Shown piece after piece: positions 25,913 to 50,697 of a stretch of 64,000 bases of DNA. The notes under the pieces are model-generated. The model searched no databases. It saw only the letters and a list, made by a program, of their open reading frames with translations, and had not been told where the DNA came from. Source of the stretch: an uncultured bacterium (GTDB taxonomy: Bacteria; Planctomycetota; Phycisphaerae; UBA1845); the NCBI GenBank assembly GCA_965371245.1, contig CBDUXT010000007.1, forward strand, positions 12,999 to 76,998, given 5' to 3'. Positions within the stretch are counted from its first letter, which is position 1. Every line of letters begins with the position of its first letter. Position numbers and translations under genes: made by a program.

Positions 25913-25957
25913 GCTAAATCCTCCAGGGTTTGCCTGGGCTTGCAGCCCAGGCGGGTT

Positions 25958-28038: not shown

Positions 28039-28077
28039 GCGGCTCCCGGCCATGGTTAACAACAAGGAGAAAAGAGA

Positions 28078-28350: not shown

Positions 28351-28760
28351 ATACGGACGGTTTTCCAGAGGCCCAAACCGCACCACCGGGCCTCTACCGG
28401 ATTCTCGCCTCCGCAGGCGCCTTGAGTATTGCACTGTACGAGTTTCGAACGGAAAGACCGGGCGCTCCGGCCCCAGAGAGTTCCATCGCAGTGACAACCA
28501 CCAAATCAGACGACCATGTAGGAAGGTGCCGAATCTCACCCCGCCGCGGCGTTGCCACGGAGCCCAGCCAGAGGCGAGAACCCGGAGCCGACGGCCGTAG
28601 ATGAGAGGCGCTAACAAACAACCGACTATTCGTGTTCCGTTGGTCTGACATATCAGCCGAGCGTTTCGACACTGGACGGCATTTGAATACAGGCAATACC
28701 GGAATCTCCTCATAAACTGCGACAGCCGCAACGACAGAGACAACCGGTTGTAGGATGTCC

Positions 28761-31700
28761 TCAAGGGTCAATCGTGATTGCTCGACATCCGTCGTTTCCA
28801 GCCGGGCACACATCAGTGCATCCATTGAAGACATCTACACCGGCCTTAAGGTATTGGGTGCCGATTAGTGCCCCACAGTTCATTCCGTACGTAACGGGGA
28901 ACCTCAAAGACTGACCTGGGGCAAGTGAATTCACATTAAACGTGAGTACGAACAAGGGGAATCCCGCGCAGGCACCGTAGTCACCGCAAGCCGAGTTAAG
29001 ACATATTCCGGTTCTCCAACAGCGCGGCTCAGAAGATATGTTGCCCACGTTTGTCACCTGTACGGTCCAAGAAACTGAATTACATATCCTTCCGCGTGAC
29101 GGAGCGTCGAGTATCTCGAACTCCAGATCCCAAATCGGGACGGCGATCGGCAGTTGGACGTTCAGGCAATCGTTGGAGGGCGTGGAATCCAAGAGAAGTG
29201 AGCATGCAGTGACAGTAAACTCGTTCAGCCCTCCGCAAGCACCGGACGAGAGCGGTGTCAGAAGACTTACGAAACCTGTTGCTTCTCCGAAGGCCGGGAC
29301 TTGGACTGTCGTTTCACCGCAATTCCCTTGAATGCACACTCTCGCAGTGGCGGCCGTGCCGGTTGAACCTGAGTTACGGAGTGCCACGCCATAGTTGCGC
29401 GGCCCGATCCCCCCAATGACCCCGCCGGGCAGGATGATACTCGCGACGGATACCTCCGGCGGCAGGTCGAGAGGGCAGCCGGTGGAATCCACGGCAACGT
29501 CCGTGGTTCCGGGACACTGATCCATCTGATCGGGCACGCCGTCGCCATCCCCGTCGAGAACACACCCGACCTGATCAACTATCCCTCCGGTTGTTCCAGG
29601 ACAATCGTCGAGATCATCGTTGACGCCATCTTCGTCGCTGTCCCGTTGATTCGCAGCACAACCGCGGTCGTCAACGGCTAGCAAGGATTCTGTCGCAGGA
29701 CACTCGTCGAGGTCGTCGAAGACTCCGTCGCCGTCCTTGTCGATCCCACGCCCCGGCTCAAACCCCACGGCCACGGGAAGCAAGGCCACGCCCTGCGGAG
29801 ATTGCAGCCCGGTGATCGGTAAGTCCTCAACGTCGGTTCCATCGAGGTCGGCGCGATGGATTTTGTCCGTCAGCGAATCCGCCCAGTAAATCTTGCCACC
29901 CTCAGGATCGATCACAATTCCTTGTGGTGATAGGAGCCCCGAAATTGGCAGCTCCTCAACAGACGTACCATCCAGGTTCGCGCGTCGAATCGCGTCCGCG
30001 CCATTGTCGGTCCAGTAGATCTTCTTGTTAAGTGGGTCCATGGCGATGCCCTGTGGGGAGATGAGGCCGCTGATCGGCAAGTCCTCCGCGTCGGTTCCAT
30101 CGAGGTCGGCGCGCTGGATCTTGTCTGTCAGTGAGTCGATCCAGTAGATCTTGCCACCCGCGGGATCGACCACAATTCCTTGCGGTGACAGCAGCCCGGA
30201 AATCGGCAGCTCCTCAGCAGATGTACCATCCAGGTTCGCGCGCCCAATTGTGTCCGTTCCACTGTCGGTCCAGTAGATCTTCTTGTTAAGTGAGTCCACG
30301 CCGATGCCCCGCGGGGAGATGAGCCCGCTGATCGGTAGGTCCTCAACGCCGCTTCCATCGAGGCCGGCGCGCTGGATTTTGTCCGTCAGCGAGTCGGTCC
30401 AGTAGATCTTGAAACCCACGGGATCGACCGCAATTCCTTGCGGTGATAGGAGTCCAGAAATCGGCAGCTCCTCAACAGATGTACCATCCAGGTTTGCGCG
30501 TCTAATTGTGTCCGTGCCAACGTCGGTCCAGATGATTGATGCCGCCGATGGTGGGGGCGGGGAACTCTCCGCATGGAGAAAACGGATGTTATCCACCCAA
30601 ACGGTACCCGCGCTAAGCCCCGGGTTGAGATCCTTTTCAACCACGAAGGCAATCTCGCCCAATGGATATTGGGAGGACACGGCCACCTCCATCGTATGCA
30701 CGATACCCGGCGGCAAAACCAGTGTATTGGTATCTCGCGTCTCGGCTAGGTTGGTCTTGAGTTCTTTTCTCAGTGTGACCGCGGATGACACTTCCACATC
30801 ACATACTACGCGGTCGCAGGGTTTCACCATAGTAACTTCAGGCTCCAGAACAACCCAAGCGTCGTCTGGCGAGTTGTCCAATGTCCAGCGAAATTCCAGT
30901 CGGCGCTCTCCGTTAGTCGTGAGCACATCCGCCTCGTTACCTTCATTGGTGATCGGTGGCCGGATGGGCTCCTGAAAATCAAAGAGCGTATCGATGACCG
31001 GCGTCCGACACACGCGGATCGGCACCGCGATGTTCAGTTGGAATATGCATAGCGTTTCGCGCAGTGCGCGCGCCATGCTCACGGTGCAAGGTGAGTCTCC
31101 GACCTTGTGAACGATGACGCCATCGACGGAGCATCCATTGCGTGCATTGGAAATGGTCACCTCTTCACCCTCGACCAATCCAAGATCTTCAAACAAGCTT
31201 TGAGCGATCCACACCTCCATCACTCCTGCAGGTTGCCCGGGTGCATTGCAGATCAGTGGTGCACGCGCAAATGTGCCCGCGGCCAGCTCGTCTCCATCCG
31301 GGCTGCCATCAGCGTCGCTGTCTGTACTCTTGGGATCCAGCCCGAACTGCACCTCGAACCCGTCCTCTACACCATCGCCGTCGGTGTCTTTGGATGCCGG
31401 ATCCGTTCGTGAGACGAGTTCTTCGAAGATATCCGAAAGCCCGTCCTCGTCGGTGTCGGGGCCGTCGGGCGTCGGGTCTTCGACCTGGCTCGGGTCCACG
31501 GGAAGGTCCGCGATGATCGGGGCCACCATACCATCCCGACTTCCGTAGAGATCCTGAATCATGCCTATGTCTACCTGCGACAGAACCGCGCGCGCCGCAC
31601 CTCGCGACTCCCGATCGATCGACTCATGCATCACAGCGCCGATGTCGTCGGCATGGACGAGCCCTAGGCTATGTCCCAGCTCGTGAAGGACGAGCGCAAA

Positions 31701-32276
31701 CTGGACATTTTCCTCCGCGGGATCCTGAAGCTGATCGAAGACCTGTACGATCTGCCTGACCGGTTCATCGCCGCTGGGTAGCTCGGCCCAACCCCAGAAT
31801 TCCACGCTATCCTCGCGTAGTGGCTCGCAACAGGGAGGTGATGCGCAAGGCGCGCATAACTCGATCTCAATGTCGGCCGGCTCGTTCGCTCCTGCCTCCC
31901 TGATCTCCAGGGGCACGAGCCTCGCATACGCCTCCGCCGCGTCCATATATAGCGCGCTGAGGGTATTGAGGTCGGCATCTTCTACCGGACCGGTTACCCT
32001 GTATGCGAGTTCACTCTTCGACCACTTGTTTCGAGCCCGCCCCCCCAAGCCGGTTCCGTTTGACGACGTGCGGGGGCCCTTCGGAATCGAATCACTCCTG
32101 ATCGACCCGCCAGGGGAGACGAACGCGCCCGGAGGGATTTCAAAGCAGCTCAACGCCCAGGCCATGACGAAGTTAGCAAGGACCAGTCGTGGCCATGGCC
32201 AGCTACGCCAACGAATGCCTGCCGATCCACTTGCGATCCACACATCCGTACTTTGGGATTGTGTCGGTTCCGACAT
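28761..32276 (-). CDS. Large secreted mosaic protein: zinc metalloprotease (HExxH, matrixin-like) + TSP3-like Ca-binding repeats + six-bladed YWTD beta-propeller + C-terminal Ig-like region
   Basis: LVLHELGHSLGLVHADD (HExxHxxGxxH). Asp-rich DTDEDGLSD, DTDGDGVEDG, DSDADGSPDGD, DKDGDGVFDD, DSDEDGVNDD and DGDGDGVPDQ loops. Six KIYWTD repeats. ORF is open to 32315 and the start is placed at MSEPTQSQ. Confidence 0.85.
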   Translation of the reverse strand: MSEPTQSQSTDVWIASGSAGIRWRSWPWPRLVLANFVMAWALSCFEIPPGAFVSPGGSIRSDSIPKGPRTSSNGTGLGGRARNKWSKSELAYRVTGPVEDADLNTLSALYMDAAEAYARLVPLEIREAGANEPADIEIELCAPCASPPCCEPLREDSVEFWGWAELPSGDEPVRQIVQVFDQLQDPAEENVQFALVLHELGHSLGLVHADDIGAVMHESIDRESRGAARAVLSQVDIGMIQDLYGSRDGMVAPIIADLPVDPSQVEDPTPDGPDTDEDGLSDIFEELVSRTDPASKDTDGDGVEDGFEVQFGLDPKSTDSDADGSPDGDELAAGTFARAPLICNAPGQPAGVMEVWIAQSLFEDLGLVEGEEVTISNARNGCSVDGVIVHKVGDSPCTVSMARALRETLCIFQLNIAVPIRVCRTPVIDTLFDFQEPIRPPITNEGNEADVLTTNGERRLEFRWTLDNSPDDAWVVLEPEVTMVKPCDRVVCDVEVSSAVTLRKELKTNLAETRDTNTLVLPPGIVHTMEVAVSSQYPLGEIAFVVEKDLNPGLSAGTVWVDNIRFLHAESSPPPPSAASIIWTDVGTDTIRRANLDGTSVEELPISGLLSPQGIAVDPVGFKIYWTDSLTDKIQRAGLDGSGVEDLPISGLISPRGIGVDSLNKKIYWTDSGTDTIGRANLDGTSAEELPISGLLSPQGIVVDPAGGKIYWIDSLTDKIQRADLDGTDAEDLPISGLISPQGIAMDPLNKKIYWTDNGADAIRRANLDGTSVEELPISGLLSPQGIVIDPEGGKIYWADSLTDKIHRADLDGTDVEDLPITGLQSPQGVALLPVAVGFEPGRGIDKDGDGVFDDLDECPATESLLAVDDRGCAANQRDSDEDGVNDDLDDCPGTTGGIVDQVGCVLDGDGDGVPDQMDQCPGTTDVAVDSTGCPLDLPPEVSVASIILPGGVIGGIGPRNYGVALRNSGSTGTAATARVCIQGNCGETTVQVPAFGEATGFVSLLTPLSSGACGGLNEFTVTACSLLLDSTPSNDCLNVQLPIAVPIWDLEFEILDAPSRGRICNSVSWTVQVTNVGNISSEPRCWRTGICLNSACGDYGACAGFPLFVLTFNVNSLAPGQSLRFPVTYGMNCGALIGTQYLKAGVDVFNGCTDVCPAGNDGCRAITIDP
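29763..30536 (-). repeat. Six tandem 129-bp YWTD-blade coding repeats organised as three 258-bp A-B units
   Basis: Blades 1, 3 and 5 share G(T/A)D(T/A)I(R/G)RANLDGTS(V/A)EELPISGLLSPQGI. Blades 2, 4 and 6 share LTDKI(Q/H)RA(G/D)LDG(S/T)(G/D)(V/A)EDLPI(S/T)GL(I/Q)SP(R/Q)G(I/V). High nucleotide identity is visible on the plus strand. Confidence 0.9.
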
Positions 32277-32326
32277 TCTCTTTATCCTTTCCCGACAGGG
32301 CCGAATACGCCACAACGGGGCCAGCG

Positions 32327-33703
32327 TCAGTCGCTGATTCCCTGCTTCCTTCTGAACTCTCGCAACTCGCCTACCTTGTCGTGGTTCCCGAGGCGGTAGT
32401 AGATGGCCTCCGCTGCCCTGACCGCGTCGTCACGGCATGGAGCGTCGTCCACAGTGGAACACCACTCGGCCTTCAACAGGAGCAGGCGGGCCTGCTCACC
32501 CCAAAGCCCTGCCGCGCGCGCCGCGTCTATCGCCATGGTGAGCTGAAGGGCAATATCAGGAACCGCATGTCCGAGGTTGGCCAATCGGATGAGAAGATCG
32601 TGACATCGAATCTGATACAATGGGATCTGTGCGTCCGTCGTATCCTGAAGCGCCTTCCGGATGCGCGCCTCCAGAGCCGCTTTGTCGCCGTTATTTGCAC
32701 CAGGAACCTCAAGCTCTGTTACCGCGATGTCTAATGCCGCCACTCTGCAAATGAAGCCACCAAGTTGAGATCCCAGATCGCACGAGTTGGCGTCGTACTC
32801 CGGCAGGAATCTGGTACGCAGCTCCACTAGTTCGGCGGCCGCGAGGTCGGGGCTACCCTCATTAAGATAGCGGGAGATTCTCCCTTGCCGGGCTTCCAGT
32901 TCGTGCCAGACATCTCCGTTGGCCTTGAACCATTGTAGTGCGCGTTCGCGATAATAGGAAGCCTGGGGATCATTTCCTAAAGCCCTGGCGAGCGTGGCGT
33001 CTCGGATGGCGCGACGCATTGGGTCGAGTTGTGCCACTTTGATGTCGCTTAGAACCTCCGCGGCCTGTCCGACGGCGCCTCGATGCATCAGGGCGACCGC
33101 CTGCAGAATCGAAACCCGCAACTGTCGGCTCGGATCACACTGTGACGCAACCATTAGCCGCACCGCGTTTTGCGCGTAGGCTTCGGTGTTGCCCATCTGT
33201 ATTTTGAGTCGCGTGTCATCGTAAAGGGTGTCGAAAAGCAGAGCAGAAGGCAAGACATCCTCGTTCTTAAGAACCGTACCGAACCATTCTTGAGCGAGCA
33301 GGTAGTTGCCGGTTACGAACCGTATCAGACCCTTCACGTATTGGCCGCGAATCGCGACAAGACCGCTGAACTGGTTCTTGTTGGCTTCTGCCTCCTGCCA
33401 AAGCCTCTCCGCATCCACGATGTTACCTTTGTACAACTCTGCCACCGTCGCGTATAACAAGACCTCGGCCTCACACTTGCATTCTTCTAACGCGGCAGGA
33501 GCGCCCGAATCGCCTGTTGGGCAGGTGGATCGCGCCTTTCGTACTTGCTCCGCCACTTCAAGCCAGTCGGCGCGTTCCGCTGCCAGTTCGATATCCGGTA
33601 GATAGTCGCACGGGGTTGGCGTGCATCTTACGGCGAGAAACAGAAAGCCTCCGCTTGCCGCCAGCACTGCACAGACCAGCCAGACTAGCAAGCTCGCCAG
33701 CAT
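32327..33703 (-). CDS. Membrane-anchored TPR-like repeat protein
   Basis: TM helix MLASLLVWLVCAVLAASGGFLFLAV, followed by helical repeats with A/L/Y/W/G spacing typical of TPR. ORF is open to 33823. Confidence 0.65.
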   Translation of the reverse strand: MLASLLVWLVCAVLAASGGFLFLAVRCTPTPCDYLPDIELAAERADWLEVAEQVRKARSTCPTGDSGAPAALEECKCEAEVLLYATVAELYKGNIVDAERLWQEAEANKNQFSGLVAIRGQYVKGLIRFVTGNYLLAQEWFGTVLKNEDVLPSALLFDTLYDDTRLKIQMGNTEAYAQNAVRLMVASQCDPSRQLRVSILQAVALMHRGAVGQAAEVLSDIKVAQLDPMRRAIRDATLARALGNDPQASYYRERALQWFKANGDVWHELEARQGRISRYLNEGSPDLAAAELVELRTRFLPEYDANSCDLGSQLGGFICRVAALDIAVTELEVPGANNGDKAALEARIRKALQDTTDAQIPLYQIRCHDLLIRLANLGHAVPDIALQLTMAIDAARAAGLWGEQARLLLLKAEWCSTVDDAPCRDDAVRAAEAIYYRLGNHDKVGELREFRRKQGISD

Positions 33704-34715
33704 CCCGGAGCGCTCCTTCGCCCAGAACGGTCGCAACCGCGTTCGCAGACTGCCACAGAATTTGCGGACCCGTTTCGAGACCTTCCACTCTTTCCGACGT
33801 CGAGTTCCGAAGCGTCTCCTCATCGTTCGCTCCCCACTCCTCCCCTGAATGGAATGCTATCCGCCCGGCAACAGTGTCGATTCCGCGAGCCTGATGAAGT
33901 CGAAACGACTCTTCGGACTGTGGATGCGGAGGGGAATCAGTATACGCATACTTGACAGCATCTTCAGGCTATCGCCTCATTTAGTAAGGTGCGGTAATCC
34001 CGTAAAGTGCCCATGTCTCTTCGTTGACCCGGTTTGACAGCGAGGGCCGCGTCATGGCTGTAGGGCTCGAAGGCAGAGTTGGATCGATGTCGGTCGCATT
34101 AGACAGGGGCCTTAGGATCTCCCGGGCCGCCTGATCGAGCCCAACAAAGCTTTGAGCCCGGGTCTTCCAGATGGATCGATCGTGACGGCATAAACTGTGC
34201 AGATCCCCCTTGTGGTTCAAGCGTCTTGTGCCATTCTATCAGCGGCATCCAATGGGCGGTAGACCAAGACAGGAACTTCGTGGGCAGTCGGGTGGCAAAC
34301 TCAGGCTCGATTTCGACGGAGCGGAGGGGATCTCAGTTCGCAGAACGTATGTTCCCGCTTGCTATCTGCGAGATTCATGTAGCCTATGCCGTTGGCGCTG
34401 CCGTAGGCTACACAAACAGCCAAGTGGCATCGCCCGTGTCTGAATCCCGACTTGACGTACAGGCTCCAGCAAAAAAGGAGAAACATCAGTTTCTCGCGCA
34501 CATCTTGGGACCCCGAAGCCATTACGATAGTGGCGATCGAGTTCCCCGTCTTGGTGGGAGGTGCCGGGATAGAATTGTAACCTTGGAGGCGCCAACTCGG
34601 AAAGGCTGGGTGAGATGGTCTCGTCCCCCGTATGCCGCGAGGCGTAGAAACAGCCCTATAAGCTTCATCTCAACCGGACAAGCGCAGCGAAAGCCGGGAG
34701 GAGCGACCGGCCAGG

Positions 34716-35918
34716 TCAAATCGGCACGTCGTGGGACGCGCTCTCGGACACCGATATCCGCCGCTTGTCGTAGATTTGGGTCGTAGTTACGTGCCGGTGA
34801 CCGAGTAGATCCTGTACTTTCCGGATTTCCACGCCACCTCCGAGCAGCAGCGTTGCCGTCGTAGCCCGAAGGGAATGCGGCGTGTAAATGCACCGCGACA
34901 CTGTCGTCCCGTCGGCCGTGGCCTCTCGCTTCACCGCGCCAGGTAGGCGGCGCAGATATTCCATGATTAGGTGATACATGCCCATGGGATGGAAGTGCCG
35001 CTCGGCCAGCTTGTCGCTGTTCGAGCTGGCCCGCGGTCGGAAGAGCGGCCCACACGTGAGACCGGATCTGTCGATGTACTCGGCGATTGCCTCGGCCGCA
35101 GCGAAGTGCAGGCCAATTGTTCGATGTCTACAGCCCTTTTCGCTCAGCCGGATCGTTGCTTCCTCACCGTCGCGGTGGAAGTCGCTGAGCTTGAGCCGGC
35201 AACCGGCCCCGATTCGCGCCCCCGCGTACAGGTAGAACTTCAGAATCGCACGATCGCGCGCATCGACGAGCGAGTCGCTGGCAGGCATGTTCATCAGCTG
35301 CCGCGCTCGCGTGGCTGGGAGCGCCCTGGTGTCGTGAAGCGGGTCGTTCGATTCCCGACTGATGAACTGTGCGTGGGCCGGATTCGGCACTGTGATCGGC
35401 AAGCGTAGCTCCACCGCTGAGGCCGCCAGGAACTTATAGAAGCTCGACAGCGACGAGATTCGCCGGTTCAAGGTCTTCGGCGCCGCCTGGTGCAAGATCA
35501 GATGTTCCCGGTAGGCCTGAACGTCCTTCACGGACACGGTGTACATTCGCCACGACTCAGCGGGCCAATCGAAGCCCACGAATCTGATGAAGGATTCCAC
35601 GTCCTGCCGGTAGGCGCGTTGCGTGTGCGGACTCCGGCGACGGGCGACCCAGGTTTCGAACAAGCCTGCCACGCAGCTGTAGAACGTCTCAACGCGGTGA
35701 CGTACCTCCGGCGTCACGTGACCGACGAGAACGGGTGGAAGCCCGACCCGGTCGGTCGGGTCTGTGAGCAGGTTGCTGGTATTCGTAATGTCCGTCGTCC
35801 TGTCCACGTGTTCTTGGATGCCCGATGTACCGCACGGCACAGGGCCGTGATTGCACTGAATCGTTGCGGTTTTTCCCTTCTCGCTCGCGCTGCCACTGTT
35901 GATAGAATCTCTTATCAT
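34716..35918 (-). CDS. Tyrosine recombinase / integrase
   Basis: SAM-like N-domain (SPHTQRAYRQDVESFIRFVG). Catalytic-domain motifs ARIGAGCRLKLSDF, GCRHRTIGL, HSLRATTATLLL, LLGHRHVTTTQIYD. ORF is open to 35972. Confidence 0.85.
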   Translation of the reverse strand: MIRDSINSGSASEKGKTATIQCNHGPVPCGTSGIQEHVDRTTDITNTSNLLTDPTDRVGLPPVLVGHVTPEVRHRVETFYSCVAGLFETWVARRRSPHTQRAYRQDVESFIRFVGFDWPAESWRMYTVSVKDVQAYREHLILHQAAPKTLNRRISSLSSFYKFLAASAVELRLPITVPNPAHAQFISRESNDPLHDTRALPATRARQLMNMPASDSLVDARDRAILKFYLYAGARIGAGCRLKLSDFHRDGEEATIRLSEKGCRHRTIGLHFAAAEAIAEYIDRSGLTCGPLFRPRASSNSDKLAERHFHPMGMYHLIMEYLRRLPGAVKREATADGTTVSRCIYTPHSLRATTATLLLGGGVEIRKVQDLLGHRHVTTTQIYDKRRISVSESASHDVPI

Positions 35919-35944
35919 AAGTCGCAGGCCCGGCGCAAGCCGTC

Positions 35945-36274
35945 TTGCGACGGGCCGATTCCCGCATGTCATTCGTCGACTTCCTTGACTTGGAATTCGA
36001 GCACCGCATCGGCCGGCAGCCGTTTCCCCGGCGGCACATGGACTCGGATCCCTTGGACCGGATCGTCAGGAAGTACGCGCGCCGGCTCGGCCTCACCCGT
36101 GGCTACTCGGCCCACTCGATGCGGGCCACGTTCATCGCAACGGCTTTGGAGAACGGCTGCAGCCTGGAGGATGTCCAGCGCGCCGCCGGCCACGCTGACC
36201 CATCGACGACCACGCTCTACGATCGGCGCGGCTATAACCCCGAAAAATCCGCCTCATTTTTCGCCAATTACTGA
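35945..36274 (+). pseudogene. 3' fragment of a second tyrosine recombinase gene (C-terminal ~95 aa only)
   Basis: LDRIVRKYARRLGLTRGYSAHSMRATFIATALENGCSLEDVQRAAGHADPSTTTLYDRR carries box II (HxxR...H...Y) only. No Arg-I or N-terminal domain lies upstream. It abuts the 5' end of the opposite-strand integrase. Confidence 0.7.
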
Positions 36275-36596
36275 TCCAATCGCCCATTTTCACAGCCAAG
36301 AATCTCGCTGCTGCTGTACGCAAGCCCGCTAACGAGTACAATGCGCCGAGACCTGGGGTCGCTGATCGCCAGATAACCGTTGCCCAGGAGCGACCTTGCA
36401 GGAGCCCCGAGCGGTACACTTGCCGTTACGTTCGGCCATCGACAGGTCGCAAGGAGGTCGTTTTGGAGGAGTTGTGCTGATCGTAGTAAGGGCCCCGTTC
36501 ATGATCTTCCGCTTCAGGGCCAATCAACTCGTTGATAATGCTTGCTTTCGCGAATGACTTGCGGCCTGCGCGGTAGCCAGCGCTACAGGTGCGATA

Positions 36597-37640
36597 ATGA
36601 GGTTTATCGATCTTTTTGCAGGGCTGGGCGGTTTTCACCTGGCGCTATCGCGCCTTGGTCACGAGTGCGTCTTTGCATCCGAACTTGATGACCGTCTCCG
36701 CGAATTATATGAGAAGAATTTCGGTATCCGGCCGGCTGGCGATATTCGCACGGTTCAGATAGGCACGATCCCTGCCCACCAGCTTCTTTGTGCGGGATTC
36801 CCATGCCAACCGTTCTCCAAAGCTGGCTCACAGCACGGCAAGAACTGCCCCAAGTGGGGCGATCTCTTCGGCTACGTGCTGAAGATTCTGCGGCACCGCA
36901 AACCTCGTTTTCTCCTTCTCGAAAACGTGCCAAATCTGTCCAAACACAACGATGGGGATACATGGAATTCAATGCGAACGGCTCTCCGCCGCGCTGGTTA
37001 CGACGTCTCCGAGCAAAGGCTCTCACCACACCAGTTTGGAATTCCGCAGGTCCGTGACCGAATCTACATCGCTGGTTCGCGTGCGGGACTCAACGGCTTT
37101 GCTTGGCCTACTGCAACAAGAACGCCCACCTCGATTGTAACGGCGCTCGACGACCAACCTGACGAAGCGCGACCCCTTTCTAGGCAGGTCACAGAGTGCC
37201 TTCGGGTCTGGCAGGCGTTTATCCGAAGCTTTCCCAAGAAGAAAGAACTGCCCTCATTCCCAATCTGGTCGATGGAGTTCGGTGCCACATATCCGTACGC
37301 GCAGCAAACGCCCAATGCTCTCGGCACGCGCGCGCTGTGTGCGTATCACGGCGCCCACGGCGTGCCACTGAATTCTGTGCCACCATCTGAACGGATGCTG
37401 GCGCTTCCGTCCTACGCCCGCACTCGCCAACGTCGTTTTCCGGATTGGAAGATCCAGTTTATTGCCCAGAATCGCGCCCTCTACGATGAGAACAAACATT
37501 GGATCGACAAATGGCTCCCCCGTATACTCCAGTTTCCCCCGAGCCTTCAGAAGCTTGAATGGAACTGCAAGGGTGAAATACGCGACATCTGGAGATACGT
37601 TATTCAGTTTCGCGCTTCTGGCGTTCGGGTGAAGCGGCCG
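36597..37640 (+). pseudogene. dcm: DNA (cytosine-5) methyltransferase, 3'-truncated (motifs IX-X missing)
   Basis: Motif I FIDLFAGLGGF, IV GFPCQPFS, VI LLENVPNL, VIII QVRDRIYIAG, then KLEWN...IQFRASGVRVKRP. After ~37640 the frame continues as a ~100-aa Ala/Pro/Ser/Thr-rich nonsense tail to 37964. Confidence 0.75.
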
Positions 37641-38053
37641 ACGCCCGCACGAACGTCCCTGGCGTCACCAAAAAAGACCGCCCGTTGTCCGCCGAGCACT
37701 TCGCCGAGTTCGAGCATTGCCACGGCACCGACCCCAACGGCCGCTTCGGGCCTGGGAAACGCAAGACGCGCCGCGAATCCGACAGCCCTTCCGGCGACAA
37801 GGGTTGGCTCGGCGGCGACCGCTGGCGCCGCTTCGGCATCGACGAAGTCAAAGCCCGCGACTTCAAACTCGACGGTTTCAAATGGCTCAAGGACGAATCC
37901 CTCGACGACGCGGACAACTTGCCTGAACCGGAGGAGCTTGTCACGGATGCGATCGGCGAGCTAGAAGCAGCGACGGAAGAACTTCAGATGGTCCTAGGCC
38001 TGCTGGAGCAAAGTCAGGCGAACGAGGTGCTGGAAAAGGAGGTGTCAGCTTGA
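37640..38053 (+). pseudogene. hsdM: 3' remnant of type I R-M methylase subunit hsdM (last ~135 codons, no start or catalytic domain)
   Basis: In the +2 frame relative to dcm: DARTNVPGVTKKDRPLSAEHFAEFEHCHG...DRWRRFGIDEVKARDFKLDGFKWLKDESLDDADNLPEPEELVTDAIGEL. This parallels the EcoKI HsdM C-terminus (DMRTNM..., RWRKFSREWI, ISWLKDKDSIDADSLPEPDVLA). Confidence 0.75.
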
Positions 38054-38943
38054 CGTTCTACTCGCGCCGCAATACGCCACCACCGACGGAACTCCTGTAT
38101 GACGTTCCTGATCTGGTCCGCAGCCGGATCGCCGCCATTCTGGAGCATCACGTTGCTCGTGGGCAAGCCGGTGTCATGTTTATGAATAGCCTCGAAGGTC
38201 TACTAACTCGCACGTATGGCGGTCTCGCGGGCCCCGGCTATGAGGCGGCGCGCCAGAGCGACATCCCCGTGATACAGCACTTCTTCTCCTGCACAGATGA
38301 GCAGGCGTTAGACTTCATCGAAGCCTGTTTCAGCTTGAACATGTCTTGTGGCGGGCAGGTGACTATCGACGAGATCAACGCTGTTCTGCGTGAGGAGGGA
38401 ATCGGTTACGAATTGTCGAAGTACCTCGGGCCCGGATTAACTAGCGGTGAGATTCGGATCGGGCAGCCTATTCCTGAGGACCAGCTACCGCGAGTCATCA
38501 GAGTTGATAGCCAAGCGATCCACGCCGAGGTGGTCGCGCCGGCGCTTGGGCTTCTATCGAACCCCATCTTCGGGGTCGCCAATACCGAAATGCTCAAGGC
38601 ACACGGCGATCATCGCGCCGGGCAAGACGAAGATGCCATTACCGCCTGCTGCTCAGCCTTTGAGAGCGTGCTGAAGACGATCTGTGACCAGAAAGGGTGG
38701 ACCTTCGACGCGGACAAAGACACCTGCGCGACGCTCGTTGATACCTGTTACAAGGAAGGCTTGTTCGCCTCGTTCTATTTGGAGCTTTTCAAGCGTGTCG
38801 GCACGATCCGCAACAAGCTGGGCGACGCGCACGGCCGCGGGCCGACGCCGCTTCACGATGTGGAAGCCGCCCATGCGGAACACATGCTCTACATGGTCTC
38901 GACCCACATTATCCTCTTGTGCAAACTAGCGGGGCTTGAATGA
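38050..38943 (+). CDS. AbiJ-like protein with C-terminal Abi_C/HEPN-type motif (297 aa)
   Basis: TTG start overlaps the hsdM stop (TTGA). The C-terminal helix pair contains R-x6-H, IRNKLGDAHG (38809-38832), as in the Abi_C (HEPN clan) pattern lRN..g.aHG. The N-terminal YDVPDLVRSRIAAIL resembles AbiJ N-domains. Confidence 0.5.
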   Translation: MTFYSRRNTPPPTELLYDVPDLVRSRIAAILEHHVARGQAGVMFMNSLEGLLTRTYGGLAGPGYEAARQSDIPVIQHFFSCTDEQALDFIEACFSLNMSCGGQVTIDEINAVLREEGIGYELSKYLGPGLTSGEIRIGQPIPEDQLPRVIRVDSQAIHAEVVAPALGLLSNPIFGVANTEMLKAHGDHRAGQDEDAITACCSAFESVLKTICDQKGWTFDADKDTCATLVDTCYKEGLFASFYLELFKRVGTIRNKLGDAHGRGPTPLHDVEAAHAEHMLYMVSTHIILLCKLAGLE

Positions 38944-40475
38944 CTTCGGTCTCGCTCAATTCAACGACCCTGAACGCGGACATCGACGAATTGCCAGAGG
39001 GGTGGACGGTTGCCTCGCTCGGCAGAGTGACGCAAGTCGTCTCGAACATCAAACCGGCGAAGGAGCCCAACCGGGTCTTCCGATACGTGGACATTGGGGC
39101 GGTCGACAACGGCACTAACCGGATCGCTGGGACTAGGAACGTCCAAGGCAAAGATGCACCGTCGCGTGCTCGCAGACCAATTCGCCCAAACGATGTCTTG
39201 TTCTCGAATGTTCGTACGTACTTGCGCAACATGGCCTTGGTTACTGAGGTCGATCACGCGGACGTCTGTTCTACCGGGTTTACGGTGTTGCGGTCGAACG
39301 GTGCAGCCCTACCTAGCTTTCTGTTCTGCGCGGCTTTGCGAGATAGCTTTATCGATGCAGTTACGAAGACTCAAACTGGGACCCACTACCCGGCGACTAG
39401 CGAGGCCAAGGTTCGTGCTGCGTCAATCCCACTGCCGCCGCTTTCCGAGCAGGTGAGGATCGTCGAGGCGATCGAACGCTTGACGGCTCGCGTTGATTCA
39501 GCTCGTCAGCGACTTGGCAACGTCCCCAAGATCCTGAAACGCTTCCGCGAAACTATCCTCGCCGCAGCCTGTACCGGACGACTCACCGAAGCCTGGAGAG
39601 AGGGGCACGCTGGCACTCGAAGTGCCGTCGAGCAGCTCGCGGAGTTTGAGTCCGCACATGCTCGACTGCGTAGCTCCAGCGCCGGAACCCGCGCTGCAAA
39701 GGCGGAGGCCACACTCGAGCTCGATGGACTACCTGATCTGCCATCAACATGGTGCTACCGAAGCGCGGACTCGATCGTCGATCCAGCTACGGTTATCTCA
39801 TACGGCATCGTGCTTCCCGGCCCCGAAGTGGAACGTGGCATTCCGTACGTCCGACAGCAGGATGTCATCGATGGCACCGTTCTCGTCGACCAACTCCGTC
39901 GCACCACACCTGAGATCGCGGCGAAACATCAGCGGTCAACACTTGTGACCGGGGATGTTCTCCTGTGCATCATCCGTCACCTTCGAGTTGCGATCGTTCC
40001 ACCTGGGATCGATGGAGCGAATCTCACGCAGGGTACCGTTCGACTCCGCCCTGCTCGGGTTGCCTCCGGACCGTATCTCGCCATGTACCTCGGCGGTATC
40101 CACGCCCAGAACTGGATGCGACAGCGCCACTTTGGCATGTCCATGCCTCGCATCAATGTGAGGGATGCACGCGCGCTCCCGGTCGCGGTTCCACCTGTCC
40201 AAGAGCAAGCTGAAATCGTCCAGCGCGTTCAGTCGTTGATGAAACTCGCGAACGCCATCGAGCGTCGCGTTGTCGCCGCAACTGCACGGGCGGACAAAAT
40301 CACCCAGGCAGTGCTGGCCAAAGCCTTTCGCGGCGAACTCGTTCCCACCGAAGCCGAGCTTGCCCGCGCCGAAGGCCGCCGCTACGAATCCGCGGTCGAC
40401 CTGCTTGCTCGTATCAATTCGCGTGTTGAATCTGTTCCAAAGGTTCGGCGGCGCAAACAAAGGACAAGTCGTTGA
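38940..40475 (+). CDS. hsdS: Type I restriction-modification specificity subunit HsdS (two target-recognition domains)
   Basis: LPEGWTVASLGRV...NDVLFSNVRTYL...STGFTVLR...IPLPPLSEQVRIVEAIERL, then a second half LPDLPSTW...GDVLLCIIR...VAVPPVQEQAEIVQRVQSLM...LAKAFRGELVP. ATGA overlap with the upstream gene. Confidence 0.85.
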   Translation: MTSVSLNSTTLNADIDELPEGWTVASLGRVTQVVSNIKPAKEPNRVFRYVDIGAVDNGTNRIAGTRNVQGKDAPSRARRPIRPNDVLFSNVRTYLRNMALVTEVDHADVCSTGFTVLRSNGAALPSFLFCAALRDSFIDAVTKTQTGTHYPATSEAKVRAASIPLPPLSEQVRIVEAIERLTARVDSARQRLGNVPKILKRFRETILAAACTGRLTEAWREGHAGTRSAVEQLAEFESAHARLRSSSAGTRAAKAEATLELDGLPDLPSTWCYRSADSIVDPATVISYGIVLPGPEVERGIPYVRQQDVIDGTVLVDQLRRTTPEIAAKHQRSTLVTGDVLLCIIRHLRVAIVPPGIDGANLTQGTVRLRPARVASGPYLAMYLGGIHAQNWMRQRHFGMSMPRINVRDARALPVAVPPVQEQAEIVQRVQSLMKLANAIERRVVAATARADKITQAVLAKAFRGELVPTEAELARAEGRRYESAVDLLARINSRVESVPKVRRRKQRTSR

Positions 40476-43141
40476 GTGACGTTGAAGCCAATCAAAGCCA
40501 AGAAGCATCTCCTGATGTGGAGGGCTCGCTAGACGTTGTCCAGTGGAGTCGGCAACTGCCGATTTGGATGCACGATGCGCTCCGCCGACTCTACCAGCAT
40601 GGAATATTGACCTCCAAAGATGATGACGAACTCCTTTCGATCTGCGCAACCGCCAACGGCGTAGAGCTTGAATCTGTGCCCAAAGTAGACCCAATTCCAC
40701 TCGATCCGGCGCACGTACCTGACGATAGACAGGTCGAGAATCCGGTCGCGCTGGTCGAACTTCGTGATTTGCTCCATGTGAACGCCGTCGCACCTGATCA
40801 GAAACTCGCATTTGCTCAGTCGGGTCTGACGATTATCTACGGTGATAACGGTTCAGGTAAATCAGGTTATGTACGTTTACTAAAGCGTGCGTGCCGGGCC
40901 CGGCACCGCGAAGGCTCGCTACTGCCGAACGTATACGCCGACCCGCCAACCAGCCCGGCCAGCGCTAAGCTCAAGTACTCCATCAATCAACAGAACCATA
41001 ACCATGATTGGGTCGATGGTAGCGACTCAACACCCTCGGAACTCTCGCGCATAAGCGTGTTTGATTCACGCTGCGCTGAAACCCACGTCACAGGCAAGAA
41101 TGAGTTGGCCTACACTCCGCGCGCGCTAGCAGTTCTGTCGGAGCTGGCGAAAGCCGCTCAAAGGATGAAGGCCAAGCTGCAGCAATTGCAGAGGCAACTA
41201 GAAGCAGAGCGACCACCCTGGATGACCACGATGCCGAAGCCGTTTCGTGATACGACGGCCGTCGGCAAACTTATTGGCGGGTTATCCGCCGATACCACAA
41301 TCGAATCTGTCGACGGGCTCGCGCGATTAACAAGCGCCGAGGAACTCCGCCTCAATCAACTCAAAACGGACTTGGGCGAGCTGCCTTTCCGCACGGTGCA
41401 AAGGCTGCGTGGCACGGTCCAGCGATTGGACTCTGCGATCAATCTCGTTGAAACAGCAGTTCGGGCTCTTTCGGATGAGAGTGTCTCGACTTTCCGTAAG
41501 CAGCTTGAGGAACTTACGGTGAAGCGCGACGCCGCACGCATTGCGGCAGACGTGAGAGCAGGCGACTACCCACTGTTAGGTGTCGGATCTGGGAGTTGGA
41601 AATCACTCTGGGAGGCCGCCCGCAAGTATTCTGAATCTGACGCGTATGCTGATCAGCCTTTTCCTGTCACGGTGGAGAATGCTAGATGTGTGCTTTGCCA
41701 ACAAGAGCTGGATTCGACCGCTAGCGACCGGCTGACTCGCTTTGAGGCATTCGTTAAGAATGAGACGCAAGTACAATTCGAGGCCGCGACGCGCTCAGTT
41801 GATGCTGGCCGAAGCACGTTTCGCGACCTCCAGTTGATTCCAGGTGAGATTCGCGCTGCGCGCGACGTTGTCCGGACAGAACTTGATCAGCGGAACCTTG
41901 CGACAGTATTACGACGCTATCTGATGCGAGCGCTCCGAATCCTATCGACTATCCTAAAAACCGAAGCGGCCGCTGATCTCGATACACTGCGTCAGCTTGG
42001 CGTCTCACCGCTTGATGAATTGCGTTTGGTACGCGATAACCTCAACACTCGAATCGCCGAGCTATCATCCGCGACAAACTCCGACTCACAGCGCCAGCTT
42101 GAAACCGAACGCGATGAACTGGAGGACCGTCTGTGGCTCAGGTCGTCGCGTCAGTTGGTTCTTCGTGAAATGCGCCGGCTTGTCAAGTTGTCGATGATCA
42201 AGTCGGCACTTGACGATACGAGCACGAACCGCGTCACACGGCACGCGACGCGGCTTGCAGCCGAAGTGGTTACCGCGAAGCTCCGGGATTGCTTCGCGCG
42301 CGAAGTCGAAAAGCTCGGAATCGGAAGTCTGCGTGCTGAAATGTCGCAACTCGGAGGAATGACGGGAGATTCGATATTCGGAATCACATTGATACGCAGC
42401 CGAAGCACAAGCGTGGCCGACGTGTTCAGTGAAGGAGAATTCCGATGCATCGCCCTTGCCGCGTTCCTGGCCGAACTTGCTACCGCCGACGATCAATCTG
42501 GGATCGTATTTGACGATCCGGTTTCTTCACTCGATCACAATCACCGTGAAGCCGTCGCGAAGCGATTGGCTGAGGAGGCGTCAAATCGGCAAGTAATCGT
42601 TTTTACGCACGACATCGTTTTCTTGTGCGAATTGGATGAGGCTGCGCGAGAGCAAGGCTTCGATCCAAAGTACCAATGCATCACACGAGGGGACGAGGCT
42701 GCGGGCTTCGCAACCTCGGAAATACCTCATAACAAACAACCGCCTCAAAGTGCTCTTTCAGGGATCGAGACACACCTCGATAACACCAAGCGACAGTACG
42801 AAACGGGACAGCAGGCCGAGTGGACAAGGACTGCCAAGTCGATCGCCGGTCAGATTCGTGACTGCTGGGAACTCGCCGCCGAACATGCGCTCAAGCCGGT
42901 GATGTCTCGGTTTTCGCACAAGACGGCACCATCCAGATTCAACGCTGTGTCCGTTTTGGACGCTTCGGATTCCACGGAGATGAAAGAAGGATATGCGTGC
43001 TGCTCCGGATGGGCGCACACCTCTGGCCCTGCGGCCCAGGCCGCTCCCGCTACGCCCGCAGAGCTTCAGGCGGAAATCAACCGCCTCAAGCACTGGCTGG
43101 AGGCTATCGAACTAAAGCAAGCAGGGCTGCGATCAACTTAG
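40472..43141 (+). CDS. Rad50/ABC-type ATPase with coiled-coil CxxC hook (AAA_13 / RloC-like, possible anticodon nuclease), 889 aa
   Basis: Walker A GDNGSGKSG (40841-64). ~500-aa helical insert with CVLC (41687-98) near its midpoint. Signature-like FSEGEFRCIALAAFL, Walker B/D-loop GIVFDDPVSSLD, H-loop VIVFTHD. The C-terminal domain has IRDCWE (R-x3-E, 42857-71) and a downstream GWAHTSG. TTGA overlap with hsdS. Confidence 0.55.
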   Translation: MSDVEANQSQEASPDVEGSLDVVQWSRQLPIWMHDALRRLYQHGILTSKDDDELLSICATANGVELESVPKVDPIPLDPAHVPDDRQVENPVALVELRDLLHVNAVAPDQKLAFAQSGLTIIYGDNGSGKSGYVRLLKRACRARHREGSLLPNVYADPPTSPASAKLKYSINQQNHNHDWVDGSDSTPSELSRISVFDSRCAETHVTGKNELAYTPRALAVLSELAKAAQRMKAKLQQLQRQLEAERPPWMTTMPKPFRDTTAVGKLIGGLSADTTIESVDGLARLTSAEELRLNQLKTDLGELPFRTVQRLRGTVQRLDSAINLVETAVRALSDESVSTFRKQLEELTVKRDAARIAADVRAGDYPLLGVGSGSWKSLWEAARKYSESDAYADQPFPVTVENARCVLCQQELDSTASDRLTRFEAFVKNETQVQFEAATRSVDAGRSTFRDLQLIPGEIRAARDVVRTELDQRNLATVLRRYLMRALRILSTILKTEAAADLDTLRQLGVSPLDELRLVRDNLNTRIAELSSATNSDSQRQLETERDELEDRLWLRSSRQLVLREMRRLVKLSMIKSALDDTSTNRVTRHATRLAAEVVTAKLRDCFAREVEKLGIGSLRAEMSQLGGMTGDSIFGITLIRSRSTSVADVFSEGEFRCIALAAFLAELATADDQSGIVFDDPVSSLDHNHREAVAKRLAEEASNRQVIVFTHDIVFLCELDEAAREQGFDPKYQCITRGDEAAGFATSEIPHNKQPPQSALSGIETHLDNTKRQYETGQQAEWTRTAKSIAGQIRDCWELAAEHALKPVMSRFSHKTAPSRFNAVSVLDASDSTEMKEGYACCSGWAHTSGPAAQAAPATPAELQAEINRLKHWLEAIELKQAGLRST

Positions 43142-43161
43142 ACCAACCATGCCATACATTC

Positions 43162-43947
43162 CTACTCAAAGACTCGAACAATCCGGCGTTTCCAGGGAAC
43201 GTTTCCGACGGGAACCAGTTCATTACCTGCAACACGGCGCGCGCGGTTGACGGCCCGCCACACATTGAGAAGCTGGACCCGAATCGGTGCATACGGCTGA
43301 AATTCTATGGCCGCAAAATCAGCTCCGACCACTGCTGCCGAGCGGTAACACGCTCGGTCAAGAAACCACTCCTTCAGCCGCAAATACTCAGCCCGCTCGA
43401 TTCGCACACAAGCGTGTCCGTTGCGGTAGCTGAGGCCGTAACCTGCGAACTTTATCGGAACGCGACGAGCGTCGCGTATTCGGCGAGTTTCTTCGTCAAA
43501 GTAACGGTGGCCCCCGTGCGTGGCCATCAGCAGGAAACACCGCTCGTTCCGGATGTACTGTATGTTGGCCAAGCCGGCGCGCTTGCGACGGGCGCGCTCC
43601 CATCGTGACACGTCGATGCCGTATTTCTTGATGAGCTTGGCGTCCACCACGGCCGGATCCTTCCTCTCTGGAATCCGTCCGGCCACGTAGAACCAATAGC
43701 CATGCCGTAGGTATTGTACGGCAACTTGCTGCACGAATCCTTCGACGGACGTAGCCACGCATCGGTACTCAACTCGCTTCTTTCCCACGCTCTTCTCTCG
43801 TAATTCTGGCGGCCGAACCGGACCCCATACCGGGACGCCGTCGGGAATAGATTGCACCGTATGCACACGGCTCCTCCCCGGCCACCAATTGCACACCGAA
43901 CAACTTGGGATTGTTTGTCGGCACAATCCCGAAAGCCATCGAACCAT
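43162..43947 (-). CDS. Hypothetical protein (conserved-looking, function unknown)
   Basis: ORF is open to 44016 and the start is placed at the internal MVRWLSG to avoid overlap with the upstream gene. The protein-like core is VQYLRHGYWFYVAGRIPERKDPAVVDAKLIKKYGIDVSRWERARRKRAGLANIQYIRNERCFLLMATHG. No family was recognised. Confidence 0.4.
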   Translation of the reverse strand: MVRWLSGLCRQTIPSCSVCNWWPGRSRVHTVQSIPDGVPVWGPVRPPELREKSVGKKRVEYRCVATSVEGFVQQVAVQYLRHGYWFYVAGRIPERKDPAVVDAKLIKKYGIDVSRWERARRKRAGLANIQYIRNERCFLLMATHGGHRYFDEETRRIRDARRVPIKFAGYGLSYRNGHACVRIERAEYLRLKEWFLDRACYRSAAVVGADFAAIEFQPYAPIRVQLLNVWRAVNRARRVAGNELVPVGNVPWKRRIVRVFE

Positions 43948-43978
43948 GTTGGTGCACGACCAACCTTCAACAATTGAC

Positions 43979-44188
43979 TCAGCCGCAGAAGCCAAGCAGC
44001 GCGCGCAGGTCATCATCCGTCGGCGGGCGACCGATGCCTTCGGTGTAGAGCGCCACGAGGCGTTCCCTCACCTTCCAGGGCAGATCGTCCGGTTCAACGA
44101 GGACGAGTCCCGTAGCCTGCAACTGCTCGACGTAGTCTGCGGCCGGGTCACCAATTACGGCGCCGTTTGCCGTTTTCCACCAACCCAT
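43979..44188 (-). CDS. Small acidic hypothetical protein (69 aa)
   Basis: GGAGGA 6 nt upstream of ATG 44188. MGWWKTANGAVIGDPAADYVEQLQATGLVLVEPDDLPWKVRERLVALYTEGIGRPPTDDDLRALLGFCG. Confidence 0.55.
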   Translation of the reverse strand: MGWWKTANGAVIGDPAADYVEQLQATGLVLVEPDDLPWKVRERLVALYTEGIGRPPTDDDLRALLGFCG

Positions 44189-45459
44189 GTTTATCCTCCG
44201 TCGTACACTCGAAACCTCCCTTCGATTCACGATTACCAGCGTGCTTCGCGCAGCGAACCGGGCGCGGCCACACTTGTTTCCAAGTTGACCGCGCCCAGTA
44301 ATAAGAAGCAGCGCGAAGCACCACTCGATCAACCGCCATGCACCACGTACACGTCGGCTATCAACGTCAGATCATCGCCACAGGCCGCTCGCGCTCCCGC
44401 GCGAGTCGCATGTGACCACGTAACCACCTCGTCAAAGGACCGATGCGGACCGATTCCGCACCGGCACACCGTACAAATGGAATACCCGTCAGCCCTTTCG
44501 TTGTTGTCACGCATCCGGCACCACCCGGACGCACAAACGGCCCGCCACTGCCTTGCAGCGGAATCCGCTCCCGATTCATCGGGACTTCTACTTGGGCCAC
44601 ACTCCCACTCTGCAGCGTTTGAATCACGCGGCTAACCAAGCCGCGCACCGGGCACCAGGCCGGCGGCTGCAGAGCTTCCCGGATTATCAGCAGTTGTTCA
44701 CCAATCAGTCACGTCGCTAGGCCGTGTTACCGGCCGGGTCTACGTCGTATGTCCGCGCTTCCGCAACGGCATAGTTTCCCCGCCATCGGCGGGATTTCAG
44801 CGGGCAGAAACAAGAAGCTCCCGCTTACCCGTCAACGTAGATTCTTCGCGGTTCGGCACCGTCTCTGATTGATGTGACCAGCAAGCCCTTACGGGCCTTT
44901 CATGGTTGAGCTTTTCGCGGTCCGCTGTTTGGGCGGATCCCCGGACGAGTCAGGTCCGGTCGCGCGTGTCGCCACGCTGCGAGCTCCCCACGCTGGCCAA
45001 GGTTGAACAAGCCTCCGAGACTTTCACCCGATTTGCGCACTGCAACGGTGAGCTTCGGCTCGAACCCCCTGGATAGGATTTGTCGTACACGACAAGACGC
45101 ACCTACTTCAACTGCTGCGACCTCGGCGATCCGCGTAACACCACGGCTCGTCGAGGCGCGTCTCCGTCGCCCCGATTCAAAATGTCAATTCGCTATCGGA
45201 TAGAACTGCAGGATTACTTCCTTTTTCGGAGATTAGTCTGCAGAGCCTCCGTCGAGCCGGACAAGCGCGTCTCCACGCATCCGGCTCTACGGGTAGCATC
45301 GTTGCGACTGGTGAGGTCGCACTCTTAGCCCGGCTGGTGAAGCCAGGTTTACCGAGTGATGCCGCCCATTTGTACGTTGTCACGGTTACGTGTTGACGTT
45401 CGTGACGAACACGAGGTCTTCGCCTCGTTCAAGGAACCTAGCGTACTCGCCAGCCAAAG

Positions 45460-46980: not shown

Positions 46981-47403
46981 ATGCGTACAAGACTGAAGGA
47001 GACCCTGGTGGCCCGAGCGAGCCGATCCAATCAACAAGAACCCATCGGCGACGTGCTCCGGGCGCGCCGCATCGAGGAGCTGCACAAAGGCCTCCGCGAG
47101 ATGGCCAGGATTCTCGAGATTGCGCCGGCTCATCTGACTGACCTGGAGAAGGGTCGTCGCACCCCGTCAGAAGACCTGCTCTTACGCATTGCCCAGGCGT
47201 ACGGCATCGCTGAACCCGAGCTCCGCGCCGGCTGGAGCCGAGCTGAAGGCATCGTAAGCGAAGTCGCGACCCAAGACCCTCTTACCGCGGAAAAGGTCCC
47301 GGAGTTCCTGCGTACCGCGCGCAAGCTATCACAAGATCAGTGGGACAAACTCATCAGCGAAGCCCGTCGTATGTCGGCCAAGAAGGGGCGTCGCAAGGAT
47401 TGA
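46981..47403 (+). CDS. XRE-family helix-turn-helix regulator
   Basis: IGDVLRARRIEELHKGLREMARILEIAPAHLTDLEKGRRTPSEDLLLRIAQAYGI is the canonical Cro/C1 HTH pattern. Confidence 0.75.
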   Translation: MRTRLKETLVARASRSNQQEPIGDVLRARRIEELHKGLREMARILEIAPAHLTDLEKGRRTPSEDLLLRIAQAYGIAEPELRAGWSRAEGIVSEVATQDPLTAEKVPEFLRTARKLSQDQWDKLISEARRMSAKKGRRKD

Positions 47404-47406
47404 GGT

Positions 47407-50650: not shown

Positions 50651-50697
50651 ACCTTTTTTCGTGCTTGTAACCCTTTGTCTGACAACGAGTTAGTAAC

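Follow-up and report, generated by a model that had tools for sequence, protein, structure and literature searches.

Among the HEPN proteins of bacterial defence, the AbiJ family with its alternative N-terminal domains (NTD1-5), HEPN genes embedded in restriction-modification (R-M) operons and AbiJ genes lying within such operons had all been described by 2013, when Anantharaman et al. also defined the AbiJ-NTD4 domain on the prototype CBY_0614 (PMC3710099). It was proposed there that the AbiJ N-terminal domains act as sensors and keep the HEPN toxin inhibited, and linkage to R-M genes was noted mainly for AbiJ proteins that have no such domain (PMC3710099). Here we describe an AbiJ-like gene of the NTD4 type in a 64,000-nucleotide stretch of DNA (the window, to which all coordinates refer unless a related locus is named) from an uncultured bacterium of the Phycisphaerae (Planctomycetota; GenBank assembly GCA_965371245.1, contig CBDUXT010000007.1, positions 12,999 to 76,998 of the forward strand), where it stands between a remnant of hsdM and an intact hsdS of a type I R-M operon. 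Its product is probably an autonomous, single-protein, two-domain abortive-infection effector of the AbiJ/Abi_C family, in the CBY_0614/STM4504 branch, that rides in the cargo slot of type I R-M operons, and we conclude that the operon is its vehicle and expression platform and not a required partner.

The CBY_0614/STM4504 family shares with the window protein a two-domain architecture, a length of about 300 amino acids (aa) and matches to NTD4 and HEPN profiles, whereas the window protein belongs to a divergent Planctomycetota branch, part of which lies within type I R-M operons. A 2026 study described SadR, an Abi_C-domain protein from Staphylococcus aureus and the 266-aa product of a single gene; it degrades single-stranded RNA as well as total RNA and not DNA or double-stranded RNA, and migrates in native gels at about twice its monomer mass (PMC13590631). 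Its RNEYGDAH motif is essential for cleavage of single-stranded RNA and for defence against phages and plasmids, with alanine at R225, N226 or H232 abolishing both ribonuclease (RNase) activity and phage defence, and a census of 2,815 Abi_C proteins in the same work found three with an NTD4 domain (PMC13590631). Compared by the published motif, SadR resembles the window protein in its Abi_C-type HEPN domain and in equal spacing (RN..GDAH; RNKLGDAH in the window protein). It differs in having an Sdh5-like N-terminal domain rather than NTD4 and in lying beside rlmH/SCCmec rather than in an R-M operon. The founding Abi_C/AbiJ HEPN member, AbiJ (Abi-859) of Lactococcus lactis, is likewise a single-protein abortive-infection system, with a mechanism still uncharacterised (PMC13064643); its N-terminal domain differs from that of the window protein, for which PADLOC gave no AbiJ match.

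PrrC and RloC are also HEPN-type RNases inside type I R-M clusters and serve as a second line of defence. In contrast to the AbiJ-like protein, which has no ATPase and outlives hsdM and hsdR, they have an ABC ATPase at the N-terminus, and the R-M enzyme silences them. A comparable location is seen in nine embedded relatives of the AbiJ-like gene, and the window keeps the relic hsdM and the intact hsdS. HEPN-MNT toxin-antitoxin (TA) systems differ in that no minimal nucleotidyltransferase (MNT) gene adjoins the AbiJ-like gene, and type III TA systems of the AbiV/AbiF kind differ in that no tandem-repeat RNA antitoxin lies by it (no tandem repeats in positions 36000-44000 and no Rfam match in or next to the gene). 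The architecture described here is thus the known NTD4 plus AbiJ-HEPN type, and represents neither a new mechanism nor a new type of system.

The AbiJ-like gene and its product

The gene and the features of its product are as follows.

38050-38943, + strand: AbiJ-like gene, 297 aa, TTG start, TGA stop (supported by the open reading frame and by homologues)
38038-38042, + strand: ribosome-binding site GGAGG, 7 nucleotides before the TTG start (read from the sequence)
38059-38415, + strand: AbiJ-NTD4 domain, residues 4-122 (Pfam PF18863), presumed sensor or regulatory domain
38578-38925, + strand: C-terminal HEPN domain, residues 177-292 (Pfam DUF7014, overlapping Abi_C)
38809-38832, + strand: predicted catalytic motif R254-N255-K-L-G-D-A-H261 (R-phi-x5-H), followed by G262-R-G264-P265

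A preliminary description of the window, made from its letters alone, had proposed the 297-aa open reading frame (ORF) as a gene, and it is a real one. A word-indexed search retrieved 247 homologues, nearly all of about 300 aa, and the family profile, searched against 1.84 billion cluster representatives, matched 2,473 of them at E<=1e-3, 1,684 at E<=1e-10 and 603 at E<=1e-30; these numbers place the ORF far beyond chance. The N-termini of the homologues align with the TTG start of the window protein, and the two closest relatives, in loci L024 and L033, also start with TTG.

Pfam scans divided the protein into two domains. AbiJ_NTD4 (PF18863), with a cutoff of 34, scored 33.8 bits when the whole protein was scanned and 36.0 bits when residues 1-150 were, and the globular N-terminal domain extends to about residue 150 (position 38499). 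DUF7014 scored 42 bits on the whole protein and 44.7 bits on the separate half, with a cutoff of 27. In an alignment of 27 homologues spanning 42-86% identity, DUF7014 and AbiJ_NTD4 were each found in all 27 and Abi_C in 13 (E<=1e-3), and a precomputed Abi_C match is present in every searched homologue for which Pfam domains are listed. R254, N255, L257, H261, G262, G264 and P265 are invariant in this alignment. The preliminary description had pointed to an R-x6-H motif here and counted a lack of its conservation in homologues as a refutation; the motif reads RNKLGDAH, from R254 to H261, and of 62 relatives on genome and metagenome contigs 61 keep RN-x5-H.

An AlphaFold2 model of the protein (mean predicted local distance difference test, pLDDT, 85) has a helical C-terminal domain, for which a HEPN fold is predicted: nearly all top Foldseek matches in the Protein Data Bank (PDB) are HEPN structures, namely AF_0298 (2hsb, target TM-score 0.73), TT1696 (1ufb, 0.70), HepT toxins, the sacsin HEPN domain and Csm6. 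Together, the profile matches, the invariant motif and the predicted fold bear out the earlier assignment to the AbiJ/Abi_C (HEPN) proteins, and the suggested resemblance of the N-terminus to AbiJ N-terminal domains is accounted for by NTD4. A model of NTD4 on its own (pLDDT 86, predicted TM-score 0.80) found no structural neighbour in the PDB with Foldseek (best E 1.2, probability 0.05), and a PDB sequence search with the family profile returned nothing significant (best E 0.25). Pfam and NCBIfam scans found no ATPase domain in the 297 residues. PADLOC matches to cyclases of the cyclic oligonucleotide-based antiphage signalling system (CBASS) were only short (13-17 bits, residues 195-230) and were dismissed as local helix similarity.

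Decay of the R-M operon around intact AbiJ-like genes

Three genes or gene remnants adjoin the AbiJ-like gene.

36597-37638, + strand: 3'-truncated C5 cytosine DNA methylase, dcm-like (Pfam DNA_methylase 1.6e-54, residues 1-174; PADLOC DruM)
37639-38053, + strand: relic of the 3' end of hsdM, about 124 codons plus stop (tblastn; PADLOC MTase_I)
38940-40475, + strand: hsdS, 511 aa, apparently intact (PADLOC Specificity_I 2.7e-79)

In the dcm-like ORF, residues 2-349 match positions 9-358 of 457 of the DruM model. The dcm-like part comprises about 347 codons, and the ORF (36597-37964), as three-frame translation showed, continues past the junction as a low-complexity sequence in the wrong hsdM frame until a stop at 37964. 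The relic aligns with HsdM residues 360-482 of 495 at 78-80% identity by tblastn and with MTase_I positions 386-484 of 487. At 37639, homology at the DNA level with three different hsdM genes sets in abruptly, which points to a deletion that fused the truncated dcm out of frame to the hsdM tail, with its breakpoint at about that position. Both methylases of the window, the dcm-like one and HsdM, are probably dead. The HsdR, HsdM and Schlafen-ATPase proteins of related operons, used as tblastn queries against the 64 kb, matched nothing besides the hsdM relic, and no hsd gene turned up when the remaining large ORFs were scanned with Pfam, so that hsdR and an intact hsdM are absent from the window. 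What the window holds of a functional type I R-M system is therefore an intact hsdS and a stretch for HsdM residues 360-482, with no hsdR. With no hsdR, and with a relic of 124 codons behind the truncated dcm in place of hsdM, the R-M scaffold is defunct unless complemented in trans. HsdS itself matches Specificity_I positions 5-445 of 461 over its residues 17-493, has two Pfam Methylase_S stretches and is 50% identical to the HsdS of locus L029 over residues 21-503.

The preliminary description saw the AbiJ-like gene as wedged between hsdM and hsdS and translationally coupled on both sides. For the position, hsdS is indeed intact downstream and the order holds for the ancestral operon and for several relatives, but the gene upstream in the window is the dcm-like one, hsdM being just a relic. 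For the coupling, the downstream side stands: the ATGA at 38940-38943 overlaps the AbiJ-like stop with the hsdS start by 4 nucleotides. Upstream, the stop of the hsdM relic overlaps the AbiJ-like start in a TTGA, but because the methylase is joined to the hsdM tail out of frame, this overlap is only a vestige of coupling to a frame that lost its own gene start.

The two closest relatives have likewise lost most of their R-M genes. In L024, whose AbiJ-like protein is 86% identical to that of the window, the gene adjoins groES-groEL, with about 31 hsdM codons left upstream of it (9901-10000 of that locus) and downstream of groEL; the ATGA overlap at its end is kept, after which homology ceases and hsdS is lost. 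In L033 (70% identity), an in-frame fusion of 186 aa lies directly upstream (1938-2498 of that locus) and consists of the first ~105 residues of HsdR and the last ~75 of HsdM. The window, L024 and L033 represent three independent deletions, each of which removed the catalytic R-M parts and spared the AbiJ-like ORF, intact in all three, together with a 3' stretch of hsdM (124, 31 and ~75 codons, respectively). Pairwise ratios of nonsynonymous to synonymous substitution (dN/dS) among the three genes were 0.16, 0.11 and 0.07, the first being that of the window against L024 and synonymous divergence being saturated for the pairs with L033; both domains are constrained. The AbiJ-like gene is thus under purifying selection despite the loss of hsdM and hsdR. 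The retention of an hsdM 3' stretch after all three deletions suggests that sequences there (the ribosome-binding site and possibly an internal promoter) serve AbiJ-like expression. A scan of 35900-43400 for sigma-70 promoters and terminators gave counts at or below shuffled expectation.

Relatives of the AbiJ-like gene and their genomic contexts

Relatives occur mainly in metagenome-assembled genomes of Planctomycetota (Phycisphaerae, Pirellulales, Gemmataceae and Thermoguttaceae). We fetched 84 loci and classed the neighbours of the AbiJ-like gene by phmmer, with the Pfam-annotated hsdR, hsdM, hsdS and Schlafen proteins of L026 and L029 as queries. An hsdS gene immediately follows the AbiJ-like gene in ten distinct loci, the window and nine embedded relatives (L001/L036, L002, L026, L029, L035, L040, L061, L074 and L077), and wherever upstream DNA was available the order was hsdR-hsdM-cargo-AbiJ-like-hsdS. 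How often the family is inserted between hsdM and hsdS, a survey suggested by the preliminary description, can thus be stated as about one locus in five; the rest, some 40 of about 50 informative loci, stand alone with no adjacent R-M gene. In nine of the ten embedded loci the AbiJ-like stop and the hsdS start overlap by 4 nucleotides (NTGA). Neighbour joining placed the embedded loci in the same half of the tree as the window, where they are interspersed with solitary loci.

Between hsdM and the AbiJ-like gene, the cargo differs from locus to locus: L001 has a gene of about 215 aa, L029, L002 and L040 have a Schlafen/HATPase_c_4 gene, L026 has both, and L035 has nothing clearly conserved. The recurrent Schlafen (SLFN_AlbA_2) plus HATPase_c_4 protein is about 620 aa long (L026 7465-9351, L029 8140-9996, L002 5285-7129, L040 508-2469), and the ~215-aa protein, for which no Pfam match was found, is encoded alongside the AbiJ-like gene in L001, L026 and L036. 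The slot after hsdS varies as well: L029 has Lamassu there, L026 has an OLD-like ATPase, and the candidate single-gene system PDC-S06 occurs solely in the window.

Distant members of the family (27-28% identity, aligned over 93-98% of the protein) were found on 334 plasmids, mostly conjugative plasmids of enterobacteria. They are annotated as STM4504/CBY_0614 by the NCBI Prokaryotic Genome Annotation Pipeline (PGAP), and the two copies that we inspected are solitary among TA and insertion sequence (IS) genes. With one distant match in viral contigs and two in the phage collection, the clade is all but missing from viral contigs and is not phage-borne. Two relatives carry damaged copies: in L013 (6309-8444) the AbiJ-like gene is split by about 1.1 kb with two minus-strand ORFs, possibly an IS element, and in L012 (8001-8913) it is frameshifted beside a minus-strand type I R-M cluster.

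The downstream ATPase and the surrounding island

One further gene follows hsdS in the same direction.

40472-43141, + strand: AAA_13 ABC-type ATPase, 889 aa (PADLOC candidate PDC-S06 4.8e-184; AAA_13 3.4e-19)

This gene overlaps the hsdS stop by 4 nucleotides. The preliminary description took its product for an RloC-like ATPase that would form, with the HEPN RNase, a double effector arrangement; as a system, such an arrangement finds no support, different loci having different defence genes after hsdS. The matches to AAA_13 and PDC-S06 are strong, the PrrC model matches only the ABC signature region (residues 670-719), and Pfam has no match in the N-terminal 103 or the C-terminal 159 residues, so that no nuclease domain was detected. 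PDC-S06 is absent from all 80-odd related loci, which makes the ATPase a neighbour and rules it out as a conserved partner of the AbiJ-like gene. The papers searched list PDC-S06 and give no mechanism for it. A CxxC element (CVLCQQ) is present in the 889-aa protein.

The AbiJ-like cluster sits on a mobile genomic island, with integrases and a tmRNA gene at its bounds.

21358-24288: type IV coupling protein of the TrwB/TraD type
26956-28038: DUF932 gene, 60% identity to the gene preceding hsdR in L029
34716-35972: integrase
49310-50620, + strand: tyrosine integrase, directly beside the tmRNA gene
50695-51049, - strand: tmRNA gene (Rfam, 148 bits)

The coupling protein and the DUF932 gene (21358-28038) are remnants of a conjugative element. 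The resemblance of the DUF932 protein to the product of the gene preceding hsdR in L029 suggests that hsdR and the 5' part of hsdM gave way to about 9.6 kb (28039-37638). The tyrosine integrase and the tmRNA gene side by side form a classic island integration site, and a search between 26 and 52 kb in the window revealed no direct repeat of the 3' end of the tmRNA gene. At 46981-48177, a helix-turn-helix (HTH) regulator of the HTH_3 family (140 aa) is followed by an IrrE/ImmA-type M78 peptidase (256 aa), a pair that is the usual stress-responsive switch of mobile elements. An Rfam match to a group II intron lies at 45195-45289 on the minus strand (45.8 bits, full 77-nucleotide model), and no intron reverse-transcriptase ORF was found near it among the ORFs scanned; the stretch 43514-43744 has 71% DNA identity to one in L029 just upstream of a group II intron reverse-transcriptase gene. 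A minus-strand ORF of 1184 aa (28761-32315) has an M10 peptidase domain, six LDL-receptor class B (YWTD) repeats and three tandem DNA repeats of 258 nucleotides (29781-30554, 79-84% identical). ARAGORN reported a 'tRNA-???' with a four-base anticodon (tcaa) at 13145-13233, within a 558-aa minus-strand ORF, which is probably a false positive.

A probable autonomous RNase and its alternatives

In the reading that we favour, that of an autonomous abortive-infection effector, the HEPN domain, probably as a dimer, would cleave single-stranded RNA via R254, N255 and H261, and NTD4 would keep the RNase silent until a phage component is sensed, whereupon RNA cleavage would stop translation and abort the infection. 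Such a mechanism was put forward in 2013 for AbiJ proteins with N-terminal domains (PMC3710099), and SadR now lends it biochemical support for Abi_C (PMC13590631). The gene would have entered the cargo slot between hsdM and hsdS in an ancestor of the clade and there would have become translationally coupled to hsdS, gaining from operon expression and co-mobility. The later decay in the window genome would have come about by the deletion that took out hsdR and left the neighbouring dcm fused to the hsdM tail, with the AbiJ-like gene, hsdS and the PDC-S06 ATPase staying intact.

Several points weigh against this reading. Where the preliminary description had suggested Abi_C and HEPN profile searches, DUF7014 exceeded its cutoff but Abi_C itself fell short in the window protein (19-21 bits against a cutoff of 24). 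The NCBIfam model for STM4504/CBY_0614 (NF046078) matched at 2.5e-36 and 125.4 bits, under its cutoff of 150, with the alignment confined to the C-terminal half (residues 148-291, model positions 132-280); given this score, the window protein is a divergent relative of that family and not a member that PGAP could name. The best Foldseek E-value for the full model, 4.8e-3, is modest, and model confidence is lower in the motif loop (pLDDT 60-78). The experimental anchor for RNase activity and defence comes by analogy from the related Abi_C protein SadR, not from an NTD4-type member. The loss of the 5' part of the operon puts expression of the window copy in question. Finally, the overlap with hsdS in nine of the ten embedded loci could mean a functional tie to HsdS and not mere compaction.

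That last point leads to the main rival, which we consider unlikely: a guard like PrrC, in which the RNase is made in fixed ratio with HsdS, binds M2S or R2M2S and stays latent in that complex until the enzyme is disabled by an anti-restriction protein of a phage, at which point it fires. Apart from the NTGA overlap, it is favoured by the position of the AbiJ-like gene, always immediately before hsdS in the embedded loci, by the existence of at least 10 independent embedded loci in two clades, and by the precedent of PrrC-EcoprrI and of many HEPN families inside R-M operons (PMC3710099). Most family members, however, have no R-M neighbour, and the protein has a putative regulatory domain of its own (NTD4) and not the ABC ATPase of PrrC and RloC. 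Moreover, three lineages have lost hsdM and hsdR (L024 also hsdS) with the AbiJ-like gene intact and under purifying selection, and because the gene was kept after these losses, the R-M complex is hard to reconcile with the role of a required silencer.

A further possibility, to which we would give distinctly less weight, is that the AbiJ-NTD4 RNase of the embedded clade is a physical partner of HsdS, as a new kind of R-M guard or as an RNase gated by DNA sequence; the surviving pair of AbiJ-like protein and HsdS would then be active without HsdM and HsdR, perhaps together with PDC-S06.

It is very improbable, and somewhat more so than such a partnership, that the gene is an inert passenger, the leftover of a dying defence island that is no longer expressed or functional in the window genome. 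The 5' part of the operon and presumably its promoter are gone, the locus is heavily rearranged (integrases, truncated dcm, group II intron fragment) and the copies in L012 and L013 are pseudogenised. In contrast, the window frame is intact with all invariant residues and its own GGAGG site, dN/dS is low against a copy that lost its R-M genes independently (L024), and the downstream hsdS and PDC-S06 genes are intact as well.

The least probable of these alternatives is that the protein is the toxin of a two-gene TA pair, neutralised by the ~215-aa upstream gene (L001, L026), by HsdS or by an RNA antitoxin as for AbiV/AbiF: many HEPN toxins are TA components, AbiV has been reported as a type III TA toxin (PMC13064643) and L001, L026 and L036 have a small gene that overlaps the start of the AbiJ-like one, but the window, L029, L040 and L024 lack the 215-aa gene, the MNT-type neighbour, tandem repeats and Rfam match are lacking as described above, the window gene is flanked by the hsdM relic and by hsdS, the neighbours at inspected solo loci are mutually unrelated, and neither the inspected plasmid copies nor the copy next to groEL has a conserved partner.

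Significance for the family

What is new here is modest: a large and previously unremarked Planctomycetota branch of the AbiJ-NTD4/HEPN family, its recurrent position as the last cargo gene before hsdS, and clear evidence that the AbiJ-like gene outlives the R-M scaffold. The NTD4 architecture, which accounts for 3 of the 2,815 Abi_C proteins in the latest survey, is represented here by 2,473 cluster representatives (E<=1e-3). The three lineages provide a natural experiment on the dependence of R-M-embedded effectors on their scaffold, and because three independent deletions spared the RNase gene, they point to autonomous cargo and to type I operons as carriers of defence cargo.

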